From Patescibacteria group bacterium (GTDB lineage: Bacteria; Patescibacteriota; Minisyncoccia; UBA6257; UBA9933), in contig JBBTPY010000003.1 of NCBI GenBank assembly GCA_038065955.1, forward strand, positions 39,624 to 103,623: 64,000 bases of DNA. The letters are read 5' to 3'. Shown here one piece after another: positions 1,560 through 30,891 of this stretch (the first letter of the stretch is position 1; each line of letters opens with the position of its first letter). A program made the translations under genes and the position numbers. Below the pieces are notes generated by a model that worked only from the letters and a program-made list of their open reading frames with translations, made no database searches and was not told where the DNA came from.

Positions 1560-2380
1560 TAAAACAATACAAACCTACAACTCCATCAAGAAGATCTATG
1601 ACCGTTGTTGATTACGGCGTATTAACTGCGGTTAAACCTCATAAAAAATTATTGACGAAATTGAAAAAACGCGGCGGCCGCAATAATTCCGGCAGAATCA
1701 CAATGCGTCATCAGGGAGGAGAAAATAAAAAGCTTTATCGGTTAGTGGATTTTAAGCAGGATAAATTGGACATTCCCGCGAAGATTGAGACGATAGAATA
1801 CGACCCGTATCGGACGGCTTTTATCGCTTTGGTTTTATATTCCGACGGCGAGAGGCGTTATATTCTCGCTTCAAAAAATATGAAAGTCGGCGATGAAATT
1901 ATTACTTCCGAGAATGCGCCCATAAAAGAAGGCAATCGTTCGGCTTTAAAAAATATTCCAGTCGGCTATTTTGTTTATAATATTGAAATGAATAGAGGCG
2001 GCGGCGGAAAACTGGCGAGATCGGCCGGCGCTTCTTGCCAGATAATGGCTCAGGAAAAAAGTTGGACGCAATTAAAGCTTTCTTCCGGAGAAGTAAGGAA
2101 AATTAATCGGGAAAATTTCGCTTCTCTTGGACAACTTTCAAATCCGGATTATATTTTAACGACAATCGGCAAGGCCGGCCGTTCGCGTTGGCTCGGCATC
2201 AGGCCGACGGTAAGAGGTTCAGCAATGAATCCGCGCGACCATCCTTACGGAGGCGGCGAAGGCCGGGCCGTGCGCGGCACGAAGCGTCCGAAAACAAAAT
2301 GGGGAAAAATTACAGGAGGTCGAAAAACTAGAAAGAAAAAGAAATGGAGCAATAAGATGATTATTAAAAGAAGAAAATAA
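1556..2380 (+). CDS. rplB: 50S ribosomal protein L2
   Basis: 274-aa protein with the characteristic Gly/Arg-rich L2 C-terminus (HPYGGGEGR). Confidence 0.95.
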
Positions 2381-3901: not shown

Positions 3902-4317
3902 TTATGTTATTGCCTAAAAAAGTAAAACATAGAAAATGGCATAAAGGAAAATCGCGTTATCGGCAAGTTGAGACGCGGGGGATTTTTTTGAGCTTCGGTT
4001 CTTTCGGATTACAGTCTTTGGGAAGTTGCTGGATTAATTCCAGACAAATTGAAGCCGCCAGAAAATCCATTACTCATTACACTAAACGAGGCGGGAAAAT
4101 TTGGATAAGAATTTTTCCGGATAAGCCGGTTACCAAAAGGCCGCCGGAAACAACAATGGGCGGCGGCAAAGGAGCGGTTGACCATTATGTTTTTCCGGTA
4201 AAGCCCGGAAGGATTTTATTTGAAATAGACGGCGTAAGCGATGAAATAGCGAGAGAAGCTTTGCGGAGAGCCAGTCATAAATTACCGGTAAAAACAAGAG
4301 TAATCGCGAAAATATGA
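3898..4317 (+). CDS. rplP: 50S ribosomal protein L16
   Basis: 139 aa, L16-like; 4-nt overlap with rpsC. Confidence 0.95.
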
Positions 4318-5953: not shown

Positions 5954-6139
5954 ATGGCAAAAACATCTGTTATCGCGCGAGCTTTAAAATCACCGAAATA
6001 TTCAACGCGAATCGTTCTCCGATGTTTTCGTTGCGGCCGCAAAAGAAGCTATATAAGGGATTTCGGACTTTGTCGGATTTGTTTCAGGGAGATGGCGTCC
6101 CGCGGAGAAATACCCGGGATAAAAAAAGCGTCATGGTAA
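5954..6139 (+). CDS. rpsN: 30S ribosomal protein S14 type Z (zinc-binding)
   Basis: 61 aa with a CxxC...CxxC zinc ribbon (CFRCGR...CRIC). Confidence 0.9.
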
Positions 6140-6148
6140 AATAAAAAT

Positions 6149-6529
6149 ATGTATACGGATTTATTAACAAAAATTAAAAACGCTCAAGCGGTAAAGAAGG
6201 AAAATATTAAGGTTTTTCATTCTAAAACAGACGAAAAAATCGTTGAAGTTTTGACGGCCAATAATTATTTGGAAAAATTTGAAAAAAAGGGCAGGGGAGT
6301 GAAGAAAATTTTAGATATAAAGTTGAAATATAACGATGGCAATGGAGCGATTGACGGGTTTAAATTTATCAGCAAACCGTCTCGCCGAATTTATATCGGT
6401 TATGATGAAATAAGACCGGTGAGACAGGGTTATGGTTTAATGATAGTTTCCACGCCAAAAGGAATTATGACCGGAAAAGAGGCTAAAAAATTAAAAGTCG
6501 GCGGAGAAGCGTTGTTTCAAATATGGTAA
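6149..6529 (+). CDS. rpsH: 30S ribosomal protein S8
   Basis: 126 aa, S8-like, operon position. Confidence 0.95.
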   Translation: MYTDLLTKIKNAQAVKKENIKVFHSKTDEKIVEVLTANNYLEKFEKKGRGVKKILDIKLKYNDGNGAIDGFKFISKPSRRIYIGYDEIRPVRQGYGLMIVSTPKGIMTGKEAKKLKVGGEALFQIW

Positions 6530-7427: not shown

Positions 7428-7919
7428 ATGGCGGAACAAAGAGAAAGAAAAATATTTAATAGGGGAAGAGGCGATAAAAAAGTTTCTGAATTTAAAGAAA
7501 AAGTATTGGATTTACGACGGGTAACCAGGGTGGTTGCCGGCGGCAAGCGCATGCGTTTTAGGGTAACGATAGTTGTCGGCGATGAAAAAGGAAGAGTCGG
7601 CCTTGGTATTGGTAAAGGATTGGATGTGGCTCAAGCGGTTGATAAAGCCAAAGCCAATGCCAAAAAAAATATAATCACTGTAAAACTTAAGGGAAAAACC
7701 ATTCCTCATGAAACAGAGGCGAAATTCAGCGCGGCTCATATAATAATAAAACCGGCGAAAGCCGGACACGGATTAAAAGCGGGCGGAGCGGCGCGGCAGG
7801 TTTTGCTTTTATCCGGTATTCGGGACGCCACGGCTAAATGTTTAGGGGGAACTAAAAATAAATTAACAAACGCGATGGCGGCGGTAGAAGCGTTAAAGAA
7901 GTTAAAAGTTAAAAGTTAA
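7428..7919 (+). CDS. rpsE: 30S ribosomal protein S5
   Basis: 163 aa, S5 dsRBD plus C-terminal domain; the 3' end carries a GTTAAAA heptamer tract. Confidence 0.95.
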   Translation: MAEQRERKIFNRGRGDKKVSEFKEKVLDLRRVTRVVAGGKRMRFRVTIVVGDEKGRVGLGIGKGLDVAQAVDKAKANAKKNIITVKLKGKTIPHETEAKFSAAHIIIKPAKAGHGLKAGGAARQVLLLSGIRDATAKCLGGTKNKLTNAMAAVEALKKLKVKS

Positions 7920-7924
7920 AAAGT
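7893..7924 (+). repeat. heptamer tandem repeat GTTAAAA x4 spanning the rpsE stop
   Basis: gttaaag aa gttaaaa gttaaaa gttaaaa agtt. Confidence 0.85.
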
Positions 7925-7925
7925 T

Positions 7926-8345
7926 ATGCAACTTCATCAATTAAAACCAAAAATTAAATTAAAAAATAAAAAGCGCGTTGGCCGCGGCGGCAAGCGCGGT
8001 TCTTTTTCCGGTAAAGGAATAAAAGGACAGAAAGCGCATGCCGGCCGGAAAATAAAATCGCAGATAATGGAGCTTATCCAAAGACTTCCGAAACTTAGAG
8101 GTTTTAAAAATAAATCTTTTTTTCCGAAGGCGATTGCCGTAAATGTCGGTGATTTGGATAAAAAGATAACGGTGAATATAATAAATAAAGAGGCGCTTTT
8201 TAAAGCGGGATTGATTAAAAAAATTGACAGTCCGGTAAAAATTTTAAGTGAAGGAGAAATCAAGCGCTCGCTTCAAATTGAAGGATTGAAAGTTTCAAAA
8301 ACCGCGAAAGAAAAGATTGAAGCCGCCGGCGGCAGTATAAAGTAA
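7926..8345 (+). CDS. rplO: 50S ribosomal protein L15 (rpsE is followed directly by rplO; no L30 gene)
   Basis: 139 aa, Gly/Arg-rich L15 N-terminus (KRVGRGGKRGSFSGKG). Confidence 0.9.
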   Translation: MQLHQLKPKIKLKNKKRVGRGGKRGSFSGKGIKGQKAHAGRKIKSQIMELIQRLPKLRGFKNKSFFPKAIAVNVGDLDKKITVNIINKEALFKAGLIKKIDSPVKILSEGEIKRSLQIEGLKVSKTAKEKIEAAGGSIK

Positions 8346-26289: not shown

Positions 26290-26365
26290 GCCACCTTAGC
26301 TCAGTTGGCAGAGCAGTGCTTTCGTAAAGCAAAGGTCCCGAGTTCGAATCTCGGAGGTGGCTCCA
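26290..26365 (+). tRNA. tRNA-Thr (anticodon CGT), CCA encoded
   Basis: cloverleaf folded by hand: acceptor GCCACCT/AGGTGGC; D arm GCTC..GAGC; anticodon loop TTCGTAA; T arm CCGAG-TTCGAAT-CTCGG; 76 nt. Confidence 0.85.
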
Positions 26366-26399
26366 GTTTTGTATAAAAAGACACGGAAGACCCCAGAGC

Positions 26400-26424
26400 G
26401 TGGGACGCGCTTCGCGCGTCCCAC
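26400..26424 (+). terminator. GC-rich hairpin downstream of tRNA-Thr
   Basis: gtgggacgcgc-ttc-gcgcgtcccac; weak T-tract follows. Confidence 0.5.
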
Positions 26425-26459
26425 CAAAAAGTCGGTCTTTTGTCTGAAAGTCTGATTCT

Positions 26460-26514
26460 GGAGTGTCTTTACGACTTCGCTCGAACTTACTTTATCAAAA
26501 ATTCGTAATGATGG
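26460..26514. repeat. left inverted repeat of the island (reverse complement of 29120..29170, about 90% identity)
   Basis: ggagtgtctttacgacttcgctcgaacttactttatcaaaaattcgtaatgatgg compared with the reverse complement of catcacgaatttttgctaaagtaagttcgagcgaagtcgtaaagacactcc. Confidence 0.85.
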
Positions 26515-26568
26515 CTAATCGCACGCGCGGAGCGCGTGGTGAAGCGAAACTAAATCGTACGCTCCACA

Positions 26569-26753
26569 AAAGCCCCGCCACACTGCCTGAATACTTGGAA
26601 GGTTGAACCCAAAAAGAAAAATGTTCTTTCCATTTTAGAAAAATCCACCCCCGCGCAAAATCAGAAAAGCAAGGAGTGTTTTCTTTCGGGGTTGCCGAGT
26701 GGAGCGAGGCGGTGGCGGGGCTTTTGTTCATCACGAATTTTTGCTAAAGTAAG
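26569..26753 (+). repeat. about 185-bp direct repeat, copy A (upstream of the foreign ORF)
   Basis: near-identical to 28959..29144; its ends form a 13-bp stem aaagccccgccac / gtggcggggcttt. Confidence 0.85.
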
Positions 26754-26756
26754 GTC

Positions 26757-28682
26757 ATGGAAAAGCATCCGTTACATCTCAAAAATCCCGAATTGCAGAC
26801 CTCTCCCGAAGTAGAGCGGGCGGTTGAACATGAGGAGGAGATATCGGGTGAAAAAGTGCCTAACGACCCAGCCGAGCGCATTGAGGCCTATTTGAAGCGG
26901 CTCGAAAATCTGGTTCTTGATCCCAAGAAAGAGCAGAAAAGGAAAGATATGCGCGATGTAGAACATACTGGGCGTCCTCGCGCACTGTCACTTTTACGCG
27001 AGATGGTGCTAAACGAGTATGTTCGACCAAATAAAGAACAAATGGCGCAATGTGCCGCCCGCATAGAACAACGCGCCGCACGCCAAATGGGCATTCAGGC
27101 GGAATATAATGACGAAACACTTGAACAGCGAGGCGAGATTGCCGTCGGCGATCTCGAAAGCTCGCTTGACCAGTGGATTAACTACCTTTCCGATCCCAAT
27201 GAACCCTATCCGACATGGTTTCGATACTATGCGTTTAGAAATATCCTGAATCTGGGAGAATACGACAAAGATAAACATGAATTCCCAAAGCGGTCAAAAG
27301 GCACATTCAAGCTCTTTCCCGATATTGATCGTGGTGCCTTGGCCTATGTTGAGGAGATTATGACCGCAGCGCAGGACGATGCTGTTCTTGCTCGCGTGCG
27401 CGAATCTCAAAAAGAATTCGGTACCCCAGAAGCTGATATGTGGACACCACAAAAAGCGCGAGCCTTTGTGAGTATGTCTTTCGCAAAACAGTATGCGAAA
27501 GGTATCGAAGCCCAAGGCACAATTACTCCAGAACTCCGTGCGGAAACGCGAGGTGAATGGGCGCAGTATCGCCAAAACGACGACCCAAAAGAACTTTGGA
27601 AATCATTGCAGAATAAAGGCACTGCATGGTGTACGAGAGGATATCCCACAGCGAAAACACAACTTAAGGGCGGAGATTTTTATGTCTATTACACTCTCAA
27701 TGCAATAGGCAAGCCAACTATCCCGCGCATTGCCATTCGGATGGAAGGCCAAAACAAAATTGCCGAGCCGCCACGTGGCGTATTCGACTCACAACAAAAT
27801 CTCGAACCGAACATGATAGATATTCTTGATGAAAAACTGAAAGAATTTGGAGGAGAGGCGGACGCTTATCGCAAGAAGAGCGAGGATATGCGAATGCTCA
27901 CCGCCCTTGAGAAAAAAAGAGAAAATGAGGAACCGTTCACCAAAGACGATCTTATTTTGTTGTACGAAATCAACGGCACCATCGAAGGCTTCGGCTATCA
28001 GAAAGACCCGCGCATCGTTGAACTCCGACAAGGAAGAAATGCCGAGGAAGACATACTCGTCATCTTTGAATGCACGAGAGACGAGATTGCTCACGTGCCG
28101 AGCCAAATAAACGAAAATACAAAGGCCTATGTCGGCCAGCTTGAACCGGGCATATTTCAAAAACTGCCGGAAAATCTTGAGCATGTGTATACGTCATTTC
28201 CCGATAAGAAAATCCGCAGAGAAAATGTCGAGATAGGAGGCAAGTCCGCAGAGCAACTCATCTCCGAAATGGAAGCGGCCGGTATTAACATTTCCAACTA
28301 CGCAAAGTCGATGCTCAAGAATAGAGAGTTCGTGCCGGGTAAAAGTCCGGAGGAAGCCACTCTCATTCGTTTGACCGTCGCCGATCTTGGATTTAAGAGC
28401 AGTGCCACGACCGACCAAATTTATGAGCGTGCTCAAATCCTCGGTTTGGAACTGTGTCCGGCTGATACCGGTCCCAACTATCGTTTGAAGTATCGAAACC
28501 AACCCTTAAATGAATGGATTTATATGGGCATGAAGCAAATCACCGACTCTGACGGCAACCCGCACGTCTTCAAGCTGGCACGCCACGACGACGGTTTGTG
28601 GCTGCACGACCATTGGGCGCTACCCGACAACGAGTGGAATCCGGACAACAAGTTCGTGTTCCGTCTCCGCAAGCCTGCCTGA
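26757..28682 (+). CDS. hypothetical protein (compositionally foreign, about 50% GC)
   Basis: 641-aa ORF with no TM and no recognised motif; codon usage unlike the neighbouring genes; flanked by direct and inverted repeats. Confidence 0.6.
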   Translation: MEKHPLHLKNPELQTSPEVERAVEHEEEISGEKVPNDPAERIEAYLKRLENLVLDPKKEQKRKDMRDVEHTGRPRALSLLREMVLNEYVRPNKEQMAQCAARIEQRAARQMGIQAEYNDETLEQRGEIAVGDLESSLDQWINYLSDPNEPYPTWFRYYAFRNILNLGEYDKDKHEFPKRSKGTFKLFPDIDRGALAYVEEIMTAAQDDAVLARVRESQKEFGTPEADMWTPQKARAFVSMSFAKQYAKGIEAQGTITPELRAETRGEWAQYRQNDDPKELWKSLQNKGTAWCTRGYPTAKTQLKGGDFYVYYTLNAIGKPTIPRIAIRMEGQNKIAEPPRGVFDSQQNLEPNMIDILDEKLKEFGGEADAYRKKSEDMRMLTALEKKRENEEPFTKDDLILLYEINGTIEGFGYQKDPRIVELRQGRNAEEDILVIFECTRDEIAHVPSQINENTKAYVGQLEPGIFQKLPENLEHVYTSFPDKKIRRENVEIGGKSAEQLISEMEAAGINISNYAKSMLKNREFVPGKSPEEATLIRLTVADLGFKSSATTDQIYERAQILGLELCPADTGPNYRLKYRNQPLNEWIYMGMKQITDSDGNPHVFKLARHDDGLWLHDHWALPDNEWNPDNKFVFRLRKPA

Positions 28683-28958
28683 CGGTAGGCAGGTCTGAAT
28701 CTTAAATCTTTTGTTTCTTTATAATTCTTGACCCTTTGGCTCTTGGACTCTTTGATCCTTTGCATTCGCTTGCGGAGCAAGCTCGTAAAAATTTTTAGTT
28801 TGAGAATCTCTCTTAGACTCAAAATTTCCGCCGAAAAAATCCGAAACAGAAGCCCGCGCGGATTCCTCCCCAGACCCCTCCTCCGCGCGGGAAATTAGCA
28901 GAGGTTTTGCCAAATTCTTTTCTCCAGAAAATAGTTTTGGCAAAACCGAGTCCGCATT

Positions 28959-29144
28959 GAAGCCCCGCCACACTGCCCGAATACTTGGAAGGCAGAACCC
29001 CGAAAGAAAACACCCTTTCCTTTTTCAGAAAAAATCCACCCCCGCGCAAAATCAGAAAAGCAAGGAGTGTTTTCTTTCGGGGTTGCCGAGCGGAGCAAGG
29101 CGGTGGCGGGGCTTTCGTTCATCACGAATTTTTGCTAAAGTAAG
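28959..29144 (+). repeat. about 185-bp direct repeat, copy B (downstream of the foreign ORF)
   Basis: aligns to 26569..26753; identical 60-bp core aaaatccacccccgcgcaaaatcagaaaagcaaggagtgttttctttcggggttgccgag. Confidence 0.85.
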
Positions 29145-29170
29145 TTCGAGCGAAGTCGTAAAGACACTCC
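29120..29170. repeat. right inverted repeat of the island
   Basis: see the left IR; continuous with direct-repeat copy B. Confidence 0.85.
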
Positions 29171-29191
29171 AAAAAGAGCGGGGATAATAAG

Positions 29192-29236
29192 TTGACATTG
29201 TATGTTATGTACGCTATTATGTACATAAAGTATAAT
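29192..29236 (+). promoter_or_regulatory. sigma70-like promoter overlapping operator-like repeats, upstream of the TA operon
   Basis: -35 TTGACA (29192-29197), 17-nt spacer, -10 TATTAT (29215-29220); TTATGTAC direct repeats and the ATGTACAT palindrome overlap the -10. Confidence 0.5.
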
Positions 29237-29249
29237 GTAATTTAAATCT

Positions 29250-29612
29250 ATGGATACTAAAACAACTTTGCCAATATCGGAGGCGAGAAAAAAAATATTT
29301 AAAATCGCGGAAGACGTGCAAGAACCTAGCCGGCATTACACTTTGACTGAAAAAGGACGTCCTAAAGCCGTAATTATATCCGCGGACGAATTTGAATCCT
29401 GGCAAGAAACTTTGGAGATAATGCGAGAATTTCCGGACCTTAAAAAAGATATTAAAGAAACAGACAGAGCTGTTAAAACCGGCGAATATAAAAAATGGAC
29501 AACATTAGAGGAACTTTTAAGAAAGGAAGGTTTTTTCATTGCCGATAAATCCGCTAAAAAATATGAATTATCAGGTAAAATTAAAACCAAGCGCCGAAAA
29601 GGAATTAAGTAA
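29250..29612 (+). CDS. type II antitoxin, Phd/YefM family
   Basis: N-terminus TLPISEARKK...AVIISADEFESWQETLEIM is typical of Phd/YefM. Confidence 0.7.
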   Translation: MDTKTTLPISEARKKIFKIAEDVQEPSRHYTLTEKGRPKAVIISADEFESWQETLEIMREFPDLKKDIKETDRAVKTGEYKKWTTLEELLRKEGFFIADKSAKKYELSGKIKTKRRKGIK

Positions 29613-29817
29613 ATTTTCTCAAAAAGATTATTATAGGATTATGGCGACTTTGACAGGTTTGGCGGTTAATCCTTTTATCGGAAAAAAATTAGAGGGCAAA
29701 TACAAGGGTTATTATTCAATCCGCGTTTGGCCGCATAGAATTATTTATCAAATTTACAAAAAAGAACTTTTAATTTTTATCATTTGCATTGGTCACCGCC
29801 GGGGAGTTTATAAATAA
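29563..29817 (+). CDS. type II toxin, RelE/ParE family
   Basis: ORF 29539..29817; the ATG at 29563 gives MNYQVKLKPSAEKELSKF...YYSIRVWPHRIIYQIYKKELLIFIICIGHRR. Confidence 0.75.
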   Translation: MNYQVKLKPSAEKELSKFSQKDYYRIMATLTGLAVNPFIGKKLEGKYKGYYSIRVWPHRIIYQIYKKELLIFIICIGHRRGVYK

Positions 29818-29852
29818 AAATGGTTTTTTTGTAAAAGTATGTTATTATACTA

Positions 29853-30891
29853 ATTATAGACGATTTAAAGCAACAATTTAAAGAACTTCAAAATGAAGCC
29901 CGGCTAATGGCCGGGCGGTTTTGACATTGCGTCAAAGCGCAATCGCGTTAAAGAAATTGAGTTTGAACTTTCCGACCCGGACTTTTGGAAAAATCGGGAA
30001 ATTGCCGACGCCAAAATAAAAGAACTCGGCGAATTAAACAGTTTAATAAAAAGATTTGACGATATAGAACAAGGATTGGCGCGGATTGAAACGCTTATTG
30101 ATTTAAAAGACGGCGAAAAGTTATTAAAAGAAATTCGAAATAAAATTCGCCAATTGGAAATTGAAAGGCTTTTTACCGGCAAATATGATAAACAATCGGC
30201 GATTGTTTCTGTTTTTGCCGGCGCCGGCGGAGAAGATGCGGAAGATTGGGCAAATATACTTTATAAAATGTATGCGAAATTCTCAGAAAAACGCGGTTGG
30301 AAAATAAAAATAATTGATGAAAATCCAATTACTTTTGAAATAAAAGGGGATTATGCTTACGGTTATTTAAAAAAAGAAGCCGGCGTTCATCGTTTAGTGA
30401 GAATTTCGCCGTTTTCGCCCGAGCAAAAAAGGCACACTTCTTTCGCCTTAGTGGAAGTTCTTCCCGATTTACCGGAAATTGACGAAAAGAAATTTGAAAT
30501 TCCTCAAGAAGACATAAAAGTTGAATTTTCTCGCGCCGGCGGACCCGGCGGCCAGAATGTCAATAAAGTGGAAACCGCCGTCAGGATTATTCATTTACCG
30601 ACGGGCATCAGTGTTGGTTCGCGGGTGGAGCGGTCGCAGGCTCAAAATCGCGTTCGAGCGATGAAAACGCTTAAAACAAAACTGTTTAAATTAATGGAAG
30701 AAAAACAAACTAAAGAATTGGGGCAGTTGCGGACCAAAGTAAAGCCGGAATGGGGAAATCAAATCCGTTCTTATGTTTTAAATCCTTATAAAATGGTTAA
30801 AGACCATAGAACGGGCATAGAAACCAGCCAGGCGGAAAAAGTATTGGAAGGAGAATTGGATTTATTTATTGAAAGCGATATAATTAAGTAA
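29853..30891 (+). CDS. prfB: peptide chain release factor 2, requires a +1 programmed frameshift at 29919-29925 (5' start uncertain)
   Basis: frame-0 leader ...[21 protein letters not shown]-stop (cgg ttt tga c), then the +1 frame continues DIASKRNR...; GGQ motif ([10 protein letters not shown]); no canonical ATG in the leader frame. Confidence 0.8.
29913..29925 (+). promoter_or_regulatory. prfB autoregulatory +1 frameshift site (SD-like GGGCGG then UUU UGA C)
   Basis: ggg cgg ttt tga c; in-frame UGA with a slippery UUU_U, analogous to the E. coli CUU UGA C site. Confidence 0.8.

Follow-up and report, generated by a model that had tools for sequence, protein, structure and literature searches.

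Organization of the Locus

What does a GC-rich gene represent that lies, enclosed by two sets of repeats, next to a tRNA gene of a Patescibacteria group bacterium? The stretch of 64,000 nt analyzed here, referred to as the window (contig JBBTPY010000003.1, positions 39,624 to 103,623), carries immediately downstream of tRNA-Thr(CGT) a repeat-bounded unit with a single open reading frame (ORF) of 641 aa, followed by a Phd/YefM-ParE toxin-antitoxin pair and by prfB (Table 1). Comparison with relatives and metagenome contigs, which are designated by L numbers, shows that this unit is an insertion at the junction of tRNA-Thr and prfB, that its gene belongs to a family of diversity-generating retroelement (DGR) targets, and that its repeats represent arms of a scaffold of wide occurrence, to which the gene of a large serine recombinase is physically linked.

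Table 1. Features of the locus and of related recombinase units; positions refer to the window unless a contig is named
Feature	Position	Strand	Remarks
tRNA-Thr(CGT)	26290-26365	+	found by ARAGORN and Rfam
Recombinase remnant	26322-26423	-	last ~34 codons; overlaps the tRNA on the opposite strand
'Solo' recombinase-unit repeat	26366-26459	.	94 nt; palindrome 26400-26424 between two ~35-nt outer segments
Inverted repeats	26456-26511 and 29119-29174		56 nt, 95% complementary
Left arm	26460-26565	-	end block 26460-26511 with motif TTTTTGATAAAGT pointing left; short GC hairpin variant at ~26518-26541
Direct repeats A and B	26570-26756 and 28960-29147		two blocks, 83 nt at 77% and 118 nt at 97%
Direct repeat A as arm copy	26566-26756	+	extra copy of right-type arm; long hairpin and 29-mer, outer 27 nt missing
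641-aa ORF	26757-28682	+	DGR variable (target) protein, Patescibacteria family
Variable repeat	28541-28669	+	aligned with template repeats of L009, L030 and L031
GC hairpin	28674-28693	+	7-bp stem, inserted past the end that resembles an initiation of mutagenic homing (IMH) site; stop codon 28680-28682 in its loop
Conserved 3' flank	28694-28790	+	conserved across the family; CTTTGR repeats, then hairpin GCTTGC-GGA-GCAAGC at 28768-28782
Full right arm	28829-29170	+	hairpins 28853-28891 and 28903-28947, long hairpin 28957-29118 (direct repeat B); end block 29119-29170
Phd/YefM-ParE pair	29250-29817	+	Pfam on the source's gene calls; between right arm and prfB
Recombinase-unit repeats	L154:139-285 and 1751-1897; L084:125-262 and 1728-1865		units also in L132, L131 and L144

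An earlier note, made from the letters of the sequence, had described this architecture, and its description of the repeats holds. The inverted repeats, given there as about 50 bp, extend over 56 nt, and their 31-nt core occurs exactly twice in the 64 kb, where no copy is expected. The direct repeats of about 185 bp on either side of the ORF resolve into two blocks whose alignment is offset by a 1-nt indel, with no further copy found in the window, and the stem closing each of them, put at 13 bp, comprises 12-16 GC-rich pairs (AAGCCCCGCCAC/GTGGCGGGGCTT). Each direct repeat ends in 29 nt that also make up the inner half of the right inverted repeat; this 29-mer is therefore present in three copies, one of them directly before the ATG of the ORF. 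The ORF had been called GC-rich relative to its surroundings, and the unit indeed has a GC content of 0.46-0.50, against 0.34-0.43 in the flanks; the chain of GC hairpins noted from the ORF to repeat B is equally real, the region 28835-29180 folding at -128.7 kcal/mol (z = -7.5 versus shuffled sequence). The neighboring toxin-antitoxin pair, now identified by Pfam, is placed beyond the arm-bounded unit and has a promoter of its own, TTGACA-17-TATTAT, as seen in a promoter scan.

An Insertion between tRNA-Thr and prfB

Syntenic relatives were located through the upstream neighbor gene, which encodes an ATPase of the type IV secretion system type. The site is empty in L036 (77% identity), where prfB starts 6 nt after tRNA-Thr, and occupied by an NTP-transferase gene in L037. 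It is at the CCA end of the tRNA that relatives show the ancestral junction with prfB. In L032 (85% identity), with a flanking gene order as in the window, the junction is filled by a 2.9-kb segment encoding PRTase-like, HAD and isochorismatase proteins. Inverted repeats of 340 bp (98%) form the borders of this segment; they are homologous to window positions 28840-29174 and to the left 56-mer of the window, and the right one stops 7 nt before the prfB start. The unit is, as had been surmised, an insertion at the junction of the two genes; and because L032 has homologous arms around other genes, the repeats belong to the site and the scaffold in this lineage, the cargo being what differs.

There is practically no chance left that the gene is a long-standing resident whose regulatory regions were duplicated and that no insertion took place, a reading whose sole support is that the gene possesses a conserved promoter-like flank of its own. 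It is contradicted by the empty site in L036 and the different contents of the same junction in L037 and L032, by the GC content of the unit relative to its flanks, and by the absence of synteny among close homologs: those at 80-90% identity are found elsewhere and without the repeats.

Behind the toxin-antitoxin insertion, the 5' end of prfB in the window (29852-29925) is unlike that of the relatives, as an ATG start is not evident and the frameshift-site region reads TTT TGA C, versus CTT TGA C.

The Encoded Protein Belongs to a Family of DGR Targets

More than 2100 full-length homologs at 56-90% identity were found for the 641-aa protein, every one from Patescibacteria and none of them named, and the family profile matches 7474 clusters at 50% identity. 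Whether the query was the protein alone or the profile, sequence searches of Pfam, NCBIfam, PHROGs, PADLOC and PDB gave no match for the ORF, in agreement with the earlier statement that it has no transposase, integrase or reverse transcriptase motif. For Patescibacteria, targets of 'clade 2' DGRs have been reported that likewise lack recognizable domains (PMC8144416).

An intact DGR cassette encodes an error-prone reverse transcriptase (RT) which copies the RNA of a template repeat, whereby a variable repeat is rewritten at the template adenines. Such components accompany several homologs of our gene. In L031 it is placed after the genes for a reverse transcriptase and bAvd; RT and Avd homologs also adjoin it in L009 and in L006/L007, and RT fragments do so in L013 and L010. 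An inverted template copy of the last ~130 nt of the gene lies 250-400 nt upstream in L009, L030 and L031, and the mismatches between template and variable repeat fall on template adenines in 16 of 17 cases in L031, 20 of 27 in L030, and 24 of 29 substitutions, plus 6 indel positions, in L009. In L006/L007, where the two repeats are direct, 19 of 21 mismatches are at adenines. The same bias is apparent across the family: among 16 variable repeats, 30 of the 34 columns that hold an A in all three template repeats (L009, L030 and L031) vary, compared to 12 of 114 columns other than template-adenine ones. Variability that tracks adenines in this manner is the signature of a DGR target, and the ORF belongs to such a family; what had been described as uncharacterized cargo is thereby assigned to the DGR variable proteins, by its RT and Avd neighbors, its adenine mismatches and the C-type-lectin model described below.

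The variable repeat of the window and the template repeats are identical through their 3' end GTTCGTGTTCCGTCTCCG and then split, with CAAG in the former and AAAC or AATA in the latter, and the point of divergence after ...CTCCG may correspond to an IMH-like element. The GC hairpin inserted past this point is absent from L011, L009 and L010, and comparable insertions are located there in L001, L018 and L023. The window's variable repeat differs from the L009 template repeat at 7 adenine positions (6 A-to-C, 1 A-to-T), all of them in the 5' half, while the 3' halves show no difference.

A conserved block of ~100 nt (GGTCTTGAAAAGCCGTAACCGTTCAATGAAACCAATCTGAAAATAGTATAGC), found ~30-160 nt 5' of the target ATG in L002, L009, L011, L028, L030 and L031, sits between template repeat and target gene and may be part of the DGR RNA. 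Its persistence without a template repeat in L011, L002 and L028 shows the DGR cassettes to be subject to decay. A group I intron in the conserved upstream block of L002, L009 and L011 was considered and discarded, as it has no Rfam support. The 185-bp repeats of the window were likewise rejected as a template/variable pair, since the positions at which they differ show no adenine specificity and the ORF includes neither of them.

As to the protein itself, the N-terminal ~450 aa form a module without assigned function. A structure prediction, which the earlier note had proposed, yielded an AlphaFold2 model in which the C-terminal domain has a pLDDT >90. The top Foldseek matches of this domain are C-type-lectin domains, at modest scores (E = 0.064, probability 0.93), so that in the model it would adopt a ligand-binding C-type-lectin fold. 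The public ENA copy of the locus (L026) has the gene broken into 450 + 195 aa, and pyruvate kinase, prfB and GroEL are split there as well, which suggests indel errors typical of long-read assembly; owing to this split, the exact 641-aa protein is not on record in L026.

The homology search further revealed that the family occurs in unrelated contexts. At 80-90% identity, homologs reside in the gatA/gatB interval (L027), in the yceG/mnmA interval (L028) and next to Abi_C (L030), and none of the homologous loci examined carries the window's repeats. A tRNA-targeted insertion of the gene itself was rejected, as a tRNA is near the gene in none of 15 homologous loci. What travels with the gene are its own flanks. 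On the 5' side, ~22-37 nt are conserved across the family (...GAATTTTTGCTAAAGTAAGGTC-ATG), which by their sequence could constitute an extended -10 element with a leaderless start. The 3' flank is kept at the nucleotide level in L003, L009, L010, L012, L016, L018, L020, L024 and L028, and its hairpin covaries in L002, L030 and L031.

Several of the homologous loci show peculiarities at the borders of the gene. In L003, a homolog of 63% identity lies between unrelated 71-nt direct repeats of its own (3964-4034 and 6098-6168, 97%). In L011, an ORF resembling SET domains (7750-8106, minus strand) is seemingly truncated at the end of the conserved 3' flank, suggesting that the gene cassette landed within another gene. 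The coding sequence of gatA in L027 contains at 7885-7945 a GC-rich insertion able to form a hairpin (CCCCTCC...GGAGGGG), similar to the small one in which the window's ORF ends.

The Repeats Are Arms of a Widespread Scaffold

A search with a 25-nt core of the inverted repeat gave matches in at least 120 metagenome contigs, so the repeat end is widespread; it had no match in viral contigs, and a viral origin of the block was dismissed on this basis. Conservation reaches ~6 nt inward and ~18 nt outward of the searched core and stops abruptly at ...ACTCC. The resulting block of ~45-50 nt contains an outward-pointing motif, TTTTTGnTAAAGT, with ~20 nt of the conserved sequence located downstream of it, and is backed on its inner side by GC-rich hairpins that vary by locus. 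Where a contig has two blocks, 12 of the 15 pairs among the matches listed face each other, at distances of 40 nt to 8.7 kb, and usually enclose 1.6-4 kb of unrelated cargo. In ten of these two-copy contigs the inverted repeats extend over 110-340 bp at 96-100%. The cargo between the arms includes a type IIG-like methylase/restriction protein, asparagine synthase, radical-SAM enzymes, a D-Ala-D-Ala ligase (Ddl), a DKNYY protein and a PGA_cap protein; a homolog of the 641-aa gene is present in none of the ~120 other arm-bearing contigs listed.

In the window, the two arms are of different variants. The left arm is 80-90% identical to arms of L084, L058, L146, L099 and others, whereas the right arm, with TTTTTGCTAAAGT at 29129-29141 in its end block pointing outward, has its homologs in the two arms of L032 and in L108 (95% identity), L069, L154 and L115. 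It is because of this difference in variant that the inverted repeat of the window spans only 56 nt. The long hairpin of the window type was found again in L038, L069, L082, L105, L108, L115 and L154, and compensatory changes at 11 of its 40 pairs show that the arm hairpins are under structural constraint.

Direct repeat A combines a left half of the ATGTYC hairpin type with a right half of the GGAGTGT type, joined near the loop such that the pairs are broken. As its halves derive from different hairpin variants, breaking the stem, repeat A is a recombinant, that is, a chimera. It contains the promoter-like motif TTTTTGCTAAAGT at 26738-26750, ending 6 nt 5' of the ATG, and its junction with the ORF coincides with the end of ~22 nt of promoter-like sequence common to the arm and to the 5' flank of the gene family.

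With these properties established, a self-contained small transposon or miniature inverted-repeat transposable element (MITE), in which the 56-nt terminal inverted repeats are recognized by a transposase, possibly the 641-aa protein itself, has become highly improbable. The repeats are real, they delimit an insertion relative to an empty site, and the end block is multi-copy in metagenomes, with contigs tending to break there (29 of 105 break just inside the block, versus 13 of 105 outside). The protein, however, is a DGR target whose family occurs in many contexts without the window's repeats and which none of the other listed arm-bearing contigs encodes; other arm pairs enclose unrelated genes; the two arms of the window share no more than their 56 nt; and neither the window, with flanks ...GATTCT|GGAGTG and CACTCC|AAAAAG, nor L056 has a direct target duplication. 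Of the small mobile element proposed in the earlier note, the insertion with inverted repeats therefore stands, but its self-contained nature does not, given the missing target-site duplication, the two arm variants and the chimeric upstream repeat.

A more serious, though still unlikely, alternative is that the arms are not recombination sites but a common terminator-plus-promoter regulatory module of the lineage, and that the inverted pairs are a passive by-product of foreign DNA arriving within or next to such a module and of the duplication of the latter. The block does have an extended -10-like motif, is preceded by GC hairpins and is located directly 5' of tRNAs, prfB, pheS, glyA and other genes, and the same type of motif precedes the DGR-target gene and the recombinase gene introduced below. 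Against a plain module of this kind speak the 45-50 conserved nucleotides with their ~20 nt past the motif and their sharp boundary, the strong excess of facing pairs (12 of 15 among the matches listed), a within-locus identity of 96-100% compared to ~70% for the hairpin part between window and L032, and the physical linkage with a serine recombinase.

The arm motif lies directly 5' of the release-factor gene in L032 and L074, where the arm abuts the gene, and 5' of pheS in L073. In other lineages, L081 (11684-11893) and L078 have a single arm 5' of a tRNA-Thr-prfB-ftsE-ftsX arrangement with the motif pointing into the operon; since this arm is upstream of tRNA-Thr, arms are not always found on the same side of the tRNA. 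In L060 (12420-12545), two end blocks abut in inverted orientation, ~10 nt apart and without hairpins or cargo, possibly an 'empty' form of the arm pair. A known structured RNA found no support: in Rfam searches of the window and 28 loci at gathering and permissive thresholds, tRNAs alone reached threshold, the remainder being weak matches to miRNA-type hairpins and snoRNAs.

A Linked Serine Recombinase and Its Remnant

In many contigs, one arm is followed on its outside by a conserved leader of ~350 nt and a gene, starting M..QKFFLYARKSTDVEDKQ, for a protein with Resolvase, Recombinase and Zn-ribbon domains. Of the ~120 contigs listed, each up to ~14 kb long, 23 have such a gene next to one of their arms. 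The gene is part of a unit of ~1.75 kb, in which it is bracketed by inverted repeats of 114-152 nt (87-100%) at a distance of 1.45-1.57 kb, each containing a 25-nt perfect palindrome. A gene for tRNA-Thr, -Gly, -Val or -Lys adjoins all 9 intact units examined; the junction was read in 8 of them, each beginning directly past the CCA end, and the intact recombinase genes overlap a tRNA 3' end. In appearance, this one-gene unit is comparable to an insertion sequence that relies on a serine recombinase.

The repeats of these units are also recognizable in the window. The tRNA-adjacent hairpin, taken in the earlier note for a terminator, is present, but it is not a simple terminator, since its 25-nt perfect palindrome (GTGGGACGCGC-TTC-GCGCGTCCCAC) recurs beside recombinase genes elsewhere. 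The palindrome module occurs in L059, L115 and L154 as well: L059 and L115 contain it in the 'solo' state seen in the window, and in L154 and L084 the recombinase gene lies between two copies of opposite orientation. Of the gene itself, the window retains no intact version but a 34-codon C-terminal remnant, which was detected by tblastn with residues 507-540 of the L154 recombinase (68% identity, E = 2e-7).

The recombinase leader (L056, L073, L077, L131, L137, L144 and L150) contains a promoter-like motif, TTTTTGCTATAAT, ~200-330 nt outside the arm and, just 5' of the recombinase start, a long covarying hairpin (AATGGCCGTCTT...GGGCGGCCATT), possibly a regulatory 5' untranslated region.

A Scenario for the Origin of the Locus

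Taken together, we consider it likely that two unrelated systems are superimposed in the window, the gene for a DGR variable protein being the current cargo of an island scaffold. According to this scenario, the scaffold inserted at the ancestral tRNA-Thr|prfB junction with its two arms facing each other across the cargo. The recombinase would insert and remove DNA at dyad-symmetric sites; if the incoming and the resident site are both long palindromes, integration would yield the inverted-repeat flanks that are observed, and such an action would be in keeping with the occurrence of the recombinase unit in 'filled' and 'solo' form. The arms could double as terminator-plus-promoter insulators, their hairpins being directed inward and their promoter-like motif outward, facing prfB, pheS or tRNAs, so that downstream housekeeping genes stay expressed. 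In the window, the recombinase unit would have collapsed to the 94-nt scar, and the DGR-target gene would have been fused behind the extra, chimeric arm copy, probably through recombination in the ~22 nt of shared promoter-like sequence. A Campbell-type integration of a 2.39-kb circle via the direct repeats is not needed, because repeat A is chimeric and the arms pre-exist in L032.

Several points weigh against this scenario. Both L032 and the window have arms and no recombinase gene, so that any action of the enzyme must have been in trans or in the past, and the palindrome and the arm block are candidate sites on which the recombinase may act. The pattern of the arm-block search, the 25-nt core conserved between window and L032, was derived from this very window. 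Neither the arm motif nor the hairpins were picked up by a generic scan for promoters and terminators, for which reason the promoter and terminator roles of the arms stay putative. Moreover, the 64-kb window contains no template repeat and, by tblastn, neither RT nor Avd; therefore the target is either diversified in trans from another place in the genome or stranded and frozen. No protein of the 695,280-nt source contig was among the best 120 of ~8000 matches in the RT search. Finally, the different cargo orientation in contigs L058 and L084 is equally well explained by assembly ambiguity across their identical 339-bp arms.

The last point bears on a further possibility, namely that the arm-bounded segment is an invertible, phase-variable cassette which is flipped by the serine recombinase or by homologous recombination between the arms. 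The layout is reminiscent of Gin, Cin and Pin, with inverted sites around a segment and a serine recombinase gene just outside; the near-perfect identity of the arms would fit repeated exchange; and L058 and L084 connect the same cargo end to different flanks. We nonetheless judge it very unlikely, as short-read assembly across identical inverted repeats produces the L058/L084 pattern anyway, the outward-facing promoter would be unchanged by an inversion, and in the window the arms have 56 nt in common and the recombinase is gone.

Could the scaffold have a more general role? One might speculate, although we think it rather doubtful, that arms and recombinase unit together constitute a cassette-capture platform of Patescibacteria that is new to the literature, integron-like in function and different in mechanism. 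A large serine recombinase residing at a tRNA 3' end would insert or exchange cassettes of one or a few genes at long dyad-symmetric sites, and the inverted hairpin arms left around each cassette would stop transcription directed inward and provide the flanking housekeeping gene with a new promoter. The window would then represent a decayed platform which has lost its recombinase, gained one extra chimeric arm and retained a DGR target as stranded cargo.

The conserved ~50-nt block and the hairpin arms around very diverse cargo have a significance beyond the window. The scaffold is widespread and apparently undescribed; an incomplete coverage of the literature returned no description of it. 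Should cassettes indeed be driven by the recombinase, this would help to explain the swapping of accessory genes, such as those for restriction-modification, cell-wall, radical-SAM and DGR-target proteins, in the tiny, streamlined genomes of candidate phyla radiation (CPR) bacteria, and would open a source of new large serine recombinases with unusually long palindromic sites. The result on the ORF, in turn, clears a false lead, since the supposed foreign protein is a member of a known hypervariable class of DGR targets of CPR bacteria, here without its retroelement. It thus offers a convenient test case for whether targets lacking a retroelement are served in trans or are fossils.

Comparison with Known Systems

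With its C-terminal variable repeat and predicted C-type-lectin fold, the ORF family resembles Mtd of the Bordetella phage, Treponema TvpA and the 'clade 2' DGRs of Patescibacteria (Roux et al., 2021; PMC8144416). Its homologs share with DGR systems the adjacent RT and Avd, the adenine-specific differences from the template, the IMH-like point and, in some cases, a hairpin after it, and the ORF conforms to published CPR targets in having neither a transmembrane segment nor a known domain. Unlike intact DGRs, the copy in the window is without template repeat, RT and Avd within 64 kb, and compared to known DGRs, the template repeat in L009, L030 and L031 is inverted and located just 5' of the target gene.

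The scaffold, for its part, encodes a protein with the Resolvase, Recombinase and Zn-ribbon arrangement of Tn4451/Tn5397 (TnpX/TndX), IS607 and the phage-type large serine integrases, and it resembles serine-recombinase elements in the dyad symmetry of its ends, the location at a tRNA 3' end and the insertion-sequence-like one-gene unit. It differs from Tn4451/Tn5397, IS607 and the large serine integrases in that its inverted repeats are 114-152 nt long and centered on a 25-nt perfect palindrome, and from serine-recombinase elements generally in keeping a separate, arm-bounded cargo compartment beside the recombinase unit, of which the window retains a remnant only. The Gin/Hin/Cin/Pin systems also have inverted sites around a segment and an adjacent serine recombinase gene; they are, however, small invertases with 26-bp sites that switch alternative gene ends, unlike the large recombinase, the repeats of 100-340 bp and the unrelated whole-gene cargo of the scaffold.

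Integron cassettes, with their attC hairpins, are brought to mind by the single-gene cargo between imperfect hairpin-forming palindromes, by the putative outward promoter and by a recombinase gene reading away from the insertion point. Nevertheless, we rejected an integron because of the type of recombinase, a serine enzyme, and the inverted orientation of the repeats. The scaffold has no IntI tyrosine recombinase, no integrase families being listed among the genes within ±8 kb; an R''/R' core (RYYYAAC/GTTRRRY) was not seen by eye; and its arms are inverted instead of direct, with usually one cassette per locus.

Islands adjacent to tRNA genes, the tycheposons among them, rely mainly on tyrosine recombinases and are flanked by direct att repeats copied from the tRNA. 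The scaffold departs from tycheposons in that its flanks are long inverted repeats and its recombinase is a serine enzyme; such long inverted arms set it apart from serine-recombinase elements and tRNA-adjacent islands alike. What it shares with the islands is the existence of recombinase-less 'satellite' versions and a hotspot by a tRNA at which the cargo varies among close relatives, as in the tycheposons of Prochlorococcus (bioRxiv 10.1101/2020.12.28.424599).

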